Positions 48,724-50,991 of a stretch of DNA of 64,000 nt are shown piece after piece (the stretch's first letter is position 1; each line of letters starts with the position of its first letter). The position numbers and the translations under genes were made by a program. Source of the DNA: a virus (taxonomy: Duplodnaviria; Heunggongvirae; Uroviricota; Caudoviricetes); the IMG/VR virus record IMGVR_UViG_2609459800_000001; one strand, given 5' to 3'. The notes beneath the pieces were generated by a model. The model was given only the letters and a program-made list of their open reading frames with translations, was not told the origin of the DNA and did not search any database.

Positions 48724-48745
48724 AGGATAATGCAAATCACTTGTT
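48724..48745 (-). promoter_or_regulatory. Candidate late promoter of lyz (AACAAGTGATT-N5-TATCCT on the minus strand)
   Basis: Shared late-motif architecture, about 90 nt upstream of lyz. Confidence 0.55.
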
Positions 48746-48769
48746 AGCTACGTTTCAAAGATATACATT

Positions 48770-48786
48770 ATTGCTCTAATTAATTT
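48770..48786 (+). promoter_or_regulatory. C1 operator upstream of ssb
   Basis: ATTGCTCTAATTAATTT is near-consensus. Confidence 0.85.
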
Positions 48787-48805: not shown

Positions 48806-49294
48806 GTGGCACAACGCGGTGTAAACAAAGTCATCCTGATTGGTACCCTGGGGCAAGACCCGGAGATCAGGTATATACCAAATGGCGGCGCGGTCGGAAG
48901 ACTCAGCATCGCAACGAATGAATCATGGCGCGACAAGCAAACGGGCCAACAGAAAGAGCAAACAGAATGGCATAAAGTCGTTTTGTTCGGAAAACTTGCT
49001 GAAATTGCGAGTGAGTATTTACGAAAAGGTTCTCAGGTCTACATCGAAGGGAAACTTAAAACCCGTAAGTGGACAGATGACGCCGGTGTAGAACGTTACA
49101 CGACGGAAATTATCGTCAGCCAGGGCGGCACCATGCAAATGATCGGCGCTCGCCGTGACGATTCACAGTCCTCAAATGGCTGGGGGCAATCAAACCAACC
49201 TCAAAACCACCAGCAATACAGTGGTGGCGGTAAACCTCAGAGCAACGCCAATAACGAACCTCCAATGGACTTTGACGACGATATTCCGTTTTGA
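48806..49294 (+). CDS. ssb: Single-stranded DNA-binding protein
   Basis: 162 aa. [17 protein letters not shown]...[12 protein letters not shown]... OB fold and the acidic tail DFDDDIPF. Confidence 0.95.
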
Positions 49295-49491
49295 ATGTGT
49301 AAAAAACGACTGAAAGAAAAGCGGTGGTCCAGACGCCGACAAAAGCACGAACTCGCAAACAAACGCCAAAGTTGGCAATGGCACGCGCTTTTCACGAAAA
49401 GAACACCCCGAGATATTGCTTTCGCTGGTGGGAAAACATTCCTGACCCACCTGAAGGCGCAATACATCAGGTTTTAAGCAGAGGAAAGACT

Positions 49492-50169
49492 ATGAATAAC
49501 ATGACAACGAAAGAGCTTTTGACGGCACTTCCAAAATACAAAAGCCATAAAACAGTTCGCGCCTCAAAAATCAAAGATATCGAAATTATCGCCCTAATGG
49601 ATGTGGTCCTTTTTTGCAACATCGAAGTCGTTGAGCCAGAAGGGGTAAAAGTCCATGTTGATAAAATGTTTTTGCAAAAACACCGACCAGAAATTGGCGG
49701 ATATCTGGTCGCTTATGAGGACGGATCTCTGTCCTATTCACCAGAAAAAACATTTGAAGAAGGCTTTAGTCGGACTAACGACTTCTTCGAAAATGGGGTA
49801 TCGCTCAGTATTGAAGGTCACAATGGGGTGACATTCATTACAGCCAGGGACGTAACTATTGCTGCCAGTGGCATCATTACCACACAAGAAGAAATCGACC
49901 TTGAAGCAGCCGACTTTTCTGACGCGCTGATGTGGCTGAAGGATGGCAAGAAAGTTGCTCGACGCGGGTGGAACGGCGAAAACCAATTCTGCTGGCTGGT
50001 TCCTGAAGGACAGTACCCGGCACGAATGGAAGCCATTAAGGGATATTTCCCCGGCGACCTCGTTCCGTATGGTGCTTATTTCGCCTTAAAAAATGCACAA
50101 GGTGTAGTTGTTCCGTGGGTGCCTTCTGTATGCGACTTACTGGCATGTGACTGGTTTGTAGTGGAGTGA
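49492..50169 (+). CDS. Two-domain protein with a C-terminal DUF2829 (Tad2-like) domain
   Basis: 225 aa from ATG 49492 (RBS AGAGGAAAG). The C-terminal ~85 aa FSDALMWLKDGKKVARRGWNGENQF...VVPWVPSVCDLLACDWFVV fit the DUF2829 pattern. Confidence 0.65.
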   Translation: MNNMTTKELLTALPKYKSHKTVRASKIKDIEIIALMDVVLFCNIEVVEPEGVKVHVDKMFLQKHRPEIGGYLVAYEDGSLSYSPEKTFEEGFSRTNDFFENGVSLSIEGHNGVTFITARDVTIAASGIITTQEEIDLEAADFSDALMWLKDGKKVARRGWNGENQFCWLVPEGQYPARMEAIKGYFPGDLVPYGAYFALKNAQGVVVPWVPSVCDLLACDWFVVE

Positions 50170-50175
50170 TTTAAC

Positions 50176-50964
50176 GTGGAAAATACTAAAGCAATTCAAT
50201 ACCGCCTGCGTAATGGCCAGAGTGTCGAAGTGACCATCAATAATGATGGTGTACCTGGCGAAAAGGTTTCTATCTCTGATCTGGCTATCGAAAAAACCAT
50301 CATGTGCCACCTTGGCTTTACTGAAGAAGTGAGCAAAAAGCATGGTGTAGCTATCTGGCGCACAATGGATACTGGCATGCGCAGATTCATTACTGCTCGT
50401 ACCCCTGGTATGACCATGATGGACCTCATGCAGATTGCGCCGCTGTTTGAGTGTGAACCTTTGGATGTATTCAGCAATCCAGCCATCTGCCAGCAGTTAT
50501 ATGGTGAGATGAAACTCGCGGTTACCCCCATTGTGCTGCATGAAGGATCGCTTGCTGGCGTATGGAAAGTAGAGCGAATTTCAAGCTACATGCCTTTCCA
50601 CATCCATGTCAACGGCGTAATCACAGGTGAAAATCAACCTGTTTCAGTTACAAAGTCAGACCTCAAGCGCGCAATTCTTGAAGCAAGTTGTCGAGTTATC
50701 GGCCTGGGCAAACAGTCTTATGTTTCCTTCCCGGCTGGCCCTGAAGGCCCGGCAGAAATTCTGATTATGGATGCCGATCTGCTCTGGCAAATACAGTTTC
50801 TGATTGGCAAAAGCATCATCCGCGCTGAAGAACTCGATCAGTACATTACCTGCACGATGACGGATGAAGTCAAAAGTGTGGCTATAGCCAATGCCCGGAA
50901 CCTATGTCGTGCTGCATTAACAGAACTGCAAGAAAACACCACGGAAGAAGTGGAAAGCGATTAA
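50176..50964 (+). CDS. Hypothetical protein
   Basis: 262-aa ORF with a GTG start, 6 nt after the preceding stop. No motif recognised. Confidence 0.55.
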   Translation: MENTKAIQYRLRNGQSVEVTINNDGVPGEKVSISDLAIEKTIMCHLGFTEEVSKKHGVAIWRTMDTGMRRFITARTPGMTMMDLMQIAPLFECEPLDVFSNPAICQQLYGEMKLAVTPIVLHEGSLAGVWKVERISSYMPFHIHVNGVITGENQPVSVTKSDLKRAILEASCRVIGLGKQSYVSFPAGPEGPAEILIMDADLLWQIQFLIGKSIIRAEELDQYITCTMTDEVKSVAIANARNLCRAALTELQENTTEEVESD

Positions 50965-50967
50965 AAA

Positions 50968-50991
50968 AAATCCCGCCGATTGGCGGGATTT
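50968..50991. terminator. Bidirectional terminator
   Basis: AAATCCCGCC-gatt-GGCGGGATTT has an A8 run before it and T-rich sequence after it. Confidence 0.85.

Follow-up and report, generated by a model that had tools for sequence, protein, structure and literature searches.

The 64,000-nucleotide stretch of DNA analyzed here (IMG/VR virus record IMGVR_UViG_2609459800_000001; hereafter the window) comes from a P1-like phage-plasmid. At positions 49492 to 50169 it carries a gene whose product joins a C-terminal Tad2 domain to an N-terminal OB fold homologous to Dec, the capsid-decoration protein of phage L. We propose, with a probability of roughly 0.7, that this OB-Tad2 protein is an early anti-signaling protein made of two modules: a sponge resembling ModTad2, and an independent OB unit, the probable source of a further activity directed at signals.

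A Tad2 domain fused to an OB fold

The gene is an intact open reading frame (ORF) of 225 codons on the + strand, running from an ATG at 49492 to a TGA at 50167-50169, with a ribosome-binding site, GAGGA, at 49482-49486, 6 nt 5' of the ATG. The full-length protein matches PHROG 872 (E=9e-60), whereas NCBIfam and PADLOC return no hit for it or for the genes beside it. NCBI annotates proteins of this kind as "DUF2829 domain-containing protein", and some in UniRef are called "Thoeris anti-defense Tad2 family protein". Its parts are as follows.

49492-50169, + strand: OB-Tad2 gene, encoding a Dec-like OB domain, a linker and a Tad2 domain (ORF, Pfam, PHROG 872)
49513-49779, + strand: N-terminal OB-fold domain, residues ~8-96, homolog of phage L Dec, with no Pfam or NCBIfam model
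49780-49899, + strand: variable linker, residues 97-136, predicted local distance difference test score (pLDDT) 35-52, ending in the conserved junction EEIDLEAADFSDAL
49900-50166, + strand: Tad2 (PF11195) domain, residues 137-225, ModTad2-like (Pfam, PDB sequence search, Foldseek)

An AlphaFold2 model of the full-length monomer, built on 43 homologs, contains two confident domains, one of residues ~5-96 and the other of residues 137-225, and between them a stretch whose pLDDT falls below 50; the predicted template modeling score (pTM) of the whole is 0.43. These separate folds bear out the two-module fusion proposed in a first-pass annotation made from the sequence alone, and the peptide strings quoted there are found in the protein as written. 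That annotation had also described the N-terminal part as a domain of about 140 residues of unknown function. A fused module is indeed present, but it actually consists of a Dec-like OB fold of ~90 residues, with a pLDDT of ~85-93, followed by a linker of ~40 residues. Because the two folds are separately confident, the linker is disordered and the OB core has been deleted in frame in phage D6 (see below), the OB domain is an independent module.

The Tad2 domain and its likely ligand

Residues 141-224 match the Pfam family PF11195 (Tad2-like, formerly DUF2829) over profile positions 2-73 of 73, with E=3.6e-23 and 82.3 bits against a cut-off of 25 bits. Searches of the PDB by sequence and by structure agree, so that the earlier assignment of the C terminus to DUF2829/Tad2 stands. 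By sequence, ModTad2 (8v3e, 9eib) is nearest at E about 1e-20 to 7e-20, followed by HgmTad2/AcrIIA7 (8kbi, 2e-10), SPO1 Tad2 (8sme, 4e-9) and SptTad2, these three at E about 1e-9 to 1e-12. In the model, residues 141-225 have a pLDDT of ~86-93 and form a helix (142-150), strands, a second helix (213-217) and a final strand (221-224). When the model was compared with the PDB by Foldseek, the first 24 matches were Tad2 chains with target-normalized TM-scores of 0.6-0.86, headed by the ModTad2-hisADPR complex (9eib, E=3e-9); the sole other significant match was Dec of phage L.

The best match to residues 137-225 in both sequence and structure is ModTad2, from a Myroides odoratus prophage (PDB 8V3E, apo; 9EIB, with histidine-ADP-ribose, His-ADPR). 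Alignment with ModTad2 gives 77 bits and 45% identity with a single one-residue gap; HgmTad2 reaches 49 bits and 44% identity with 17 gap columns, and SPO1 Tad2 scores 42 bits at 36% identity. By these pairwise scores the domain is nearest ModTad2. The inserts of the two are of equal length, and the pocket motif W-x-P-S-V-small-D is common to both proteins. The two differ in that ModTad2 stands alone at 89 residues, whereas the window protein adds a 136-residue N-terminal extension and has a Cys at position 214. SPO1 Tad2 and HgmTad2, which are sponges for glycocyclic ADP-ribose (gcADPR) and, in the case of HgmTad2, also for cyclic dinucleotides, share the PF11195 fold, the GWNG loop and the S..D motif, but at lower similarity. 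The ligand contacts of HgmTad2 (10.1101/2023.11.15.567273) were mapped onto the window protein by alignment. Conserved are the GWNG loop residues W160-N161-G162, S212 and D215, corresponding to W21/N22/G23, S90 and D93 of HgmTad2. In contrast, the residue pair Q91/T92 found in gcADPR-binding Tad2 proteins is replaced by V213/C214 (V/S in ModTad2, V/G in most P1-like relatives), and the cyclic-di-GMP contact R31 by V170, as in ModTad2.

The domain thus looks like a sponge of the ModTad2 type. ModTad2 leaves type IV Thoeris unblocked; it sequesters His-ADPR and blocks type II Thoeris, with type I Thoeris unaffected (10.1101/2024.01.03.573942), and in a second pocket it binds cyclic UMP and cyclic CMP and thereby inhibits Pycsar (10.1101/2025.08.24.671296). 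Because the window domain is closest to ModTad2, His-ADPR from type II Thoeris would be the most likely ligand and is our first candidate, at somewhat short of even odds, since specificity shifts within the Tad2 family. The first-pass annotation had placed the protein in the family of Tad2, described there as sequestering gcADPR and some CBASS-type signals. The family is upheld, but gcADPR is not the ligand chiefly expected here, as the nearest relative, ModTad2, binds His-ADPR and does not inhibit type I Thoeris. By analogy with ModTad2, a second pocket for cyclic mononucleotides, and hence an action on Pycsar, is possible.

P1-like alleles that are otherwise similar, the relatives P0024 and P0031 among them, have at least three unrelated forms of the insert after strand beta2 (50002-50079, residues ~171-196). 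Since the same insert in HgmTad2 forms a second pocket, for cyclic dinucleotides, this variation hints at ligand switching, with the alleles perhaps differing in their second ligand. The three interchangeable inserts provide a natural series in which such switching of ligand specificity could be studied.

The N-terminal domain is related to phage L Dec

Modeled alone, residues ~8-96 reach a pLDDT of 92.7 and a pTM of 0.82, with the elements in the order long beta-hairpin, strand, helix, two strands, helix. A profile built from 18 homologs matches Dec of phage L (6e3c) with E=2.6e-5, hhalign of the domain against Dec gives 94.4% probability over 79 columns, and Foldseek gives E=5.5e-4. The N-terminal domain is an OB fold homologous to Dec, with which it has in common the order of strands and helices and the motif P-E-x-G-G-Y-L...F-E (PDB 6E3C). 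It is a homolog of the Dec fold and not a Dec ortholog. It is the OB fold of Dec that contacts capsids, while the tail at its C terminus builds a trimeric beta-helix spike (PMC6449081, PMC11398494). Moreover, Dec is a late structural protein, unlike the product of the OB-Tad2 gene, which lies in an early C1-controlled operon, and Dec is without the H-K and K-H-x-P motifs of the OB family. A Dec-type tail is absent as a feature of the window protein: the segment after the OB fold is variable, survives in D6 without the OB core, and retains only a weak "TAR". Indeed, the linker differs among relatives, and its likeness to Dec is confined to a weak resemblance of "TARDVTIA" to the C-terminal "TARTITLT" of Dec.

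The OB domain has no model in Pfam, NCBIfam or PADLOC, and the PHROGs that it matches (872, 11049 and 9467) are of unknown function. The N-terminal module gave no matches to Acb4 (PF13876) or Sequestin (PF21825) and no similarity to LockinA. Acb4 identity had been suspected from the pattern GYLV.Y.DG...SP..FE..Y, but there is no PF13876 match and, in one protein, a true Acb4 adjoins the OB domain; identity with Lockin was likewise rejected, the LockinA sequence being unrelated. The idea of a tail-fiber-like trimeric linker was demoted, as the PF03406 repeat of the relative P0023 sits in a foreign N terminus and the remaining basis is the weak "TAR" motif. P0023 itself (306 residues, from E. 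coli) has a tail-fiber N terminus with PF03406 repeats in place of the first ~25 OB-Tad2 residues, and this chimera is either a recombinant or an assembly artifact. A weak structural match of the OB domain to a phage RyR-domain protein (E=0.037) was also noted; RyR-like proteins have recently been reported as Thoeris sponges.

The OB family and its fusion partners

An exhaustive profile search found the OB domain in 5,013 clusters (defined at 50% identity) at E<=1e-3 and in 2,782 at E<=1e-10. Such a search was required: a word-indexed homolog search with the N-terminal half returned close P1-like relatives only. Giant cadherin/Big_9 proteins that topped the profile search were discarded as noise, being multi-stretch partial matches to the beta-hairpin motif. 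The family consists mostly of stand-alone proteins of 83-125 residues, and 55 of 140 representatives are no longer than 125 residues. Across the broad family ~20 residues are invariant, including a C-H-K motif near the N terminus and K-H-x-P before the GGY hairpin.

The Pfam families that co-occur with the OB domain in these 140 representatives (E<1e-4, two marginal matches set aside) are Sequestin PF21825 (15 representatives), Tad2 (12), Acb4 PF13876 (3) and the Acb2/Tad1 hairpin PF24729 (3). An independent local search placed Tad2, Sequestin or Acb4 in 26 of the 140, and a known sponge domain is present in at most 29, counting the three Acb2/Tad1 hairpin matches. The fusions of the OB domain to known families are almost only to families of immune-signal sponges. 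Further examples, an OB-Acb4-Lockin protein and several OB-Sequestin proteins, are found in the supplementary tables of a preprint on sponges (10.1101/2025.07.12.664507). In its main text, the passages that deal with fusions, with Tad2 and with Lockin contain no description of the OB domain.

According to those passages, Acb4-Tad2 and Tad2-Sequestin fusions occur in phages, and one Acb4-Tad2 protein blocked both type I Thoeris and CBASS (10.1101/2025.07.12.664507). The published fusions, Acb4-Tad2 (Pasteurella phage Pm86), Tad2-Sequestin and Acb4-Sequestin (Ab09 gp59), likewise combine Tad2 or another sponge with a small phage module; they differ from the window protein in that the partner here matches no named sponge family and its activity is only predicted. 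The same passages relate how Sequestin was found, namely as a short protein specific to phages that mostly occurs by itself and is elsewhere joined to established sponges (10.1101/2025.07.12.664507). The OB family has exactly these traits. Its members are short and restricted to phages, most of them stand alone, and fusions to Tad2, Sequestin, Acb4, Acb2/Tad1 and Lockin recur among them. The fusion partners of known sponges have recently been a source of new sponge families, and the OB domain escaped this search because it has no Pfam model.

Two other fusions were seen in passing. The OB domain is joined to a MazG-type nucleotide pyrophosphatase in BFVD A0A384WK77 (Vibrio phage vB_VpaS_KF6) and phrog_37613. 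In addition, the Sequestin table of 10.1101/2025.07.12.664507 contains a second Sequestin-fused domain without a Pfam match, MKLYEGTKRLTARPMTRGDYNAYRGW...GYISWSPADVFERSYKP. This "MKLYEGTKRL..." domain was considered as an OB relative and rejected, since only the last 33 columns, a C-terminal hairpin-helix motif, are common to the two (hhalign 95%); it may be another overlooked partner module.

A model for OB-Tad2 and its rivals

We picture OB-Tad2 as a cytoplasmic anti-defense protein that would be transcribed with ssb and isaA from the C1-repressed promoter P2ssb and made early after infection or induction. The Tad2 domain would most likely assemble into the homotetramer typical of its family, and the tetramer would sequester a host nucleotide alarm signal, so that the effector is never activated. 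The OB domain, held on a flexible linker, would most likely add a second signal-directed activity, as a new sponge or a signal-binding module, because its known-family fusions are almost all to sponges. The first-pass annotation had suggested that the fusion might add a second anti-defense activity, and this suggestion gains from the sponge-biased partners of the OB domain and from the dual-active Acb4-Tad2 protein described in the fusion passages of 10.1101/2025.07.12.664507. That the OB family in general acts directly on immune signaling is conceivable, though not what we would bet on; it might do so as a new sponge or possibly as a signal-modifying module, the latter because the broad family has invariant C-H-K, K-H-x-P, D and E residues.

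Several observations weigh against this model. The ligand call is weak, given an identity to ModTad2 of just 45% and the changes of specificity within the Tad2 family. Codon 214 (50131-50133) encodes Cys here and Gly in nearly all relatives ("PSVGDLLACDW"), and its equivalent in HgmTad2, T92, is an adenine contact (10.1101/2023.11.15.567273). The closest characterized relative of the OB domain, Dec, binds capsids and not nucleotides, and at least one stand-alone OB homolog is encoded in a head-gene module, with the portal gene on one side and the major head gene on the other, in Ralstonia phage GP4. The window protein has S18, S79 and F92 at positions that are invariant in the family (the C of C-H-K, DGY and GY), and the P1-like clade is relaxed at several such residues. 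Moreover, phage D6 has the same gene, orf114 (L004 2594-3034), with the OB core lost in frame, leaving the first 20 residues joined to the linker and Tad2. Because invariant residues have been substituted or relaxed and D6 has lost the OB core, the OB module may be degenerating in the P1-like clade.

The deletion in D6 and the relaxed invariant residues also favor the strongest rival, namely that the OB domain itself binds no ligand and is a scaffold, a solubility or oligomerization module or a decaying remnant, leaving the protein a plain Tad2 sponge. This rival can further draw on the free variation of linker and OB domain among alleles that preserve both the Tad2 core and the EIDLEAADFSDAL junction. 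However, a mostly stand-alone existence at 83-125 residues with ~20 invariant residues is unexpected for a scaffold, and known sponges oligomerize unaided; we regard this explanation as rather unlikely.

A second rival holds that the OB domain keeps a Dec-like affinity for capsids and docks on P1 procapsids or capsids, either masking them from a capsid-sensing defense or positioning the sponge at the source of the signal. It draws on the homology to the capsid-binding OB fold of Dec (PMC6449081, PMC11398494), on the GP4 homolog among head genes and on the weak Dec-tail-like motif TAR-x-x-T in the linker. Yet the capsid contacts of Dec, K30 and Y49, align with the variable positions E31 and H55, and the gene belongs to an early C1-controlled operon, not to the late structural genes. 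Furthermore, virions are made both by P1, which has no such gene, and by D6, in which the OB core is missing; the fusion partners of the OB domain are soluble sponges and not structural proteins; and other homologs lie among small early, non-structural genes. Taken with these points, capsid binding appears very improbable.

Least credible is a role as an AcrIIA7-type anti-CRISPR or in nucleotide metabolism in place of anti-signaling: although a DUF2829 protein was first reported as AcrIIA7 (PDB 8kbi and 9kzr are so named), sister alleles are fused to or adjoin a dUTPase and an OB-MazG fusion exists, the literature has reassigned DUF2829 to signal sequestration and contains no demonstration of Cas9 binding, the protein retains the gcADPR/ADPR-pocket motifs, and the CRISPR systems of E. 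coli and Salmonella are of type I, these hosts not being known to carry type II-A.

If the OB family does act directly on immune signaling, the P1-like protein would be a two-in-one inhibitor, and the OB family (~5,000 clusters) would be a major new class of anti-defense proteins, missed because fusion-based discovery relied on Pfam. An OB domain that binds a signal could possibly serve as a probe for identifying the signaling molecule, as Tad1 and ModTad2 have served. Clinical E. coli, Shigella and Salmonella commonly harbor P1-like phage-plasmids, and the silencing of host alarm systems bears on phage-plasmid spread, on phage therapy and on P1-based tools.

Possible exchange of modules at the locus

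Related elements carry this Tad2 domain, with 80-95% identity, in the company of different partners. The arrangements comprise OB-Tad2, as in the window; a dUTPase fused to or preceding Tad2, in D6-like elements; Tad2 followed by Sequestin, in enterobacterial contigs of 77-89 kb; and other, unannotated N-terminal modules. The sister proteins in the related ~77-89-kb contigs are thus Tad2-Sequestin fusions like those published. The junction peptide EEIDLEAADFSDAL between linker and Tad2 is kept across these architectures, and the nucleotide match to D6 starts inside the linker, at ~49847; both features make the locus consistent with recombinational module swapping. In D6 a separate dUTPase gene precedes orf114, and in relatives dUTPase and Tad2 form one 241-residue ORF. 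The D6 record notes that orf114 resembles the C-terminal half of the SJ46 protein J46_0048. The gene next to the Tad2-Sequestin allele examined is not isaA-like, which places that allele in a different element context.

The locus and operon

The 2.7 kb around the gene are 97.8% identical to Salmonella phage SJ46, and the 956 bp that hold it (49295-50250) are 100% identical in a 95-kb Salmonella enterica plasmid, NZ_CP051361.1, where the gene bears the label "DUF2829 domain-containing protein". In the window, lyz (-) is followed in turn by ssb (+), OB-Tad2 (+), isaA-like (+), hxr (-) and ddrB (-). The features that surround the OB-Tad2 gene are the following.

48741-48769, + strand: sigma-70 promoter P2ssb, with -35 TTGTTA and -10 TACATT (from the P1 annotation; function inferred from P1)
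48770-48786, + strand: C1 repressor operator Ossb/Op21, ATTGCTCTAATTAATTT, identical to the annotated P1 operator
48806-49294, + strand: ssb, first gene of the operon (Pfam SSB, E=7e-40; homologous to P1 ssb)
49295-49491, + strand: 197-bp leader ending in GAGGA (49482-49486), by alignment with P1, where the leader directly precedes isaA
50176-50964, + strand: isaA-like gene, last gene of the operon (homolog of P1 IsaA; PHROG 2326, E=1e-151)
50971-50988, no strand assigned: GC-rich hairpin TCCCGCC-GATT-GGCGGGA flanked by an A-run and a T-rich run, read from the sequence

In the 126 bp 5' of ssb a single base differs from P1, outside the -35 and -10 elements of the promoter and outside the C1 operator. 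Because P2ssb and Op21 are identical to those of P1, and a terminator scan found no terminator-like site on the + strand before the end of isaA, ssb, the OB-Tad2 gene and isaA appear to form one C1-repressed early operon. By analogy with P1, whose annotation supplies the timing, this operon would stay repressed as long as the element persists as a prophage-plasmid, and would be expressed early once the phage infects or is induced. The hairpin at 50971-50988, between the convergent isaA and hxr genes, is likely a bidirectional terminator, although the simple terminator scan did not call it.

P1 is without the OB-Tad2 gene; in the alignment, its ssb-downstream leader and ribosome-binding site run directly into isaA. 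The first-pass annotation had put the gene in the slot occupied by IS1 in P1 and next to the antirestriction (dar) operon, and neither placement survives the comparison. The gene sits between the ssb leader and isaA, whereas IS1 and isaB of P1 lie downstream of isaA and are both absent from the window; isaA and hxr intervene before ddrB/darB. The P1 and SJ46 records annotate the leader as coding from a GTG (49324 in the window). The 168 nt from this GTG to the ATG, 49324-49491, are open and in frame with the Tad2 gene, and the P1 counterpart (L001 2125-2292) is open and in frame with isaA. The coding annotation is probably an over-extension, and we read the segment as leader because of the ribosome-binding site, the ATG at 49492 and the calling of a 225-residue gene in hundreds of genomes.

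The region is widespread. In PLSDB it is matched by 455 plasmids, 110 of which carry at least 80% of it; others have diverged alleles (~72-78% coverage, 84-87% identity), and in many the site is empty as in P1. Tad2 in P1-like phage-plasmids is already known from automated screening: with DefenseFinder, 56% of the P1-like elements and 93% of the D6-like ones were reported to carry "Tad2 AcrIIA7 (anti-Thoeris)" (10.1101/2025.09.12.675607). The genes found there are very likely of the same locus class as the window gene. That screen scores presence and absence and does not describe the architecture, the OB partner, the locus structure or the allelic mosaic. The supplementary tables of the 2025 sponge-diversity preprint contain no P1-like Tad2 sequences. 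We found no earlier description of the Dec-like OB partner, of the size of the OB family, of its near-exclusive association with sponges or of the structure of the ssb-isaA slot.

The isaA-like gene, which lies directly 3' of the Tad2 gene in P1-like and D6-like elements, has no matches in Pfam, NCBIfam or PADLOC. As a member of the same early operon it may merit testing as an anti-defense candidate. In N4-like phages, too, an anti-signaling hotspot adjoins ssb (10.64898/2026.06.04.730250), which is a parallel to the P1-like locus and not evidence concerning it.

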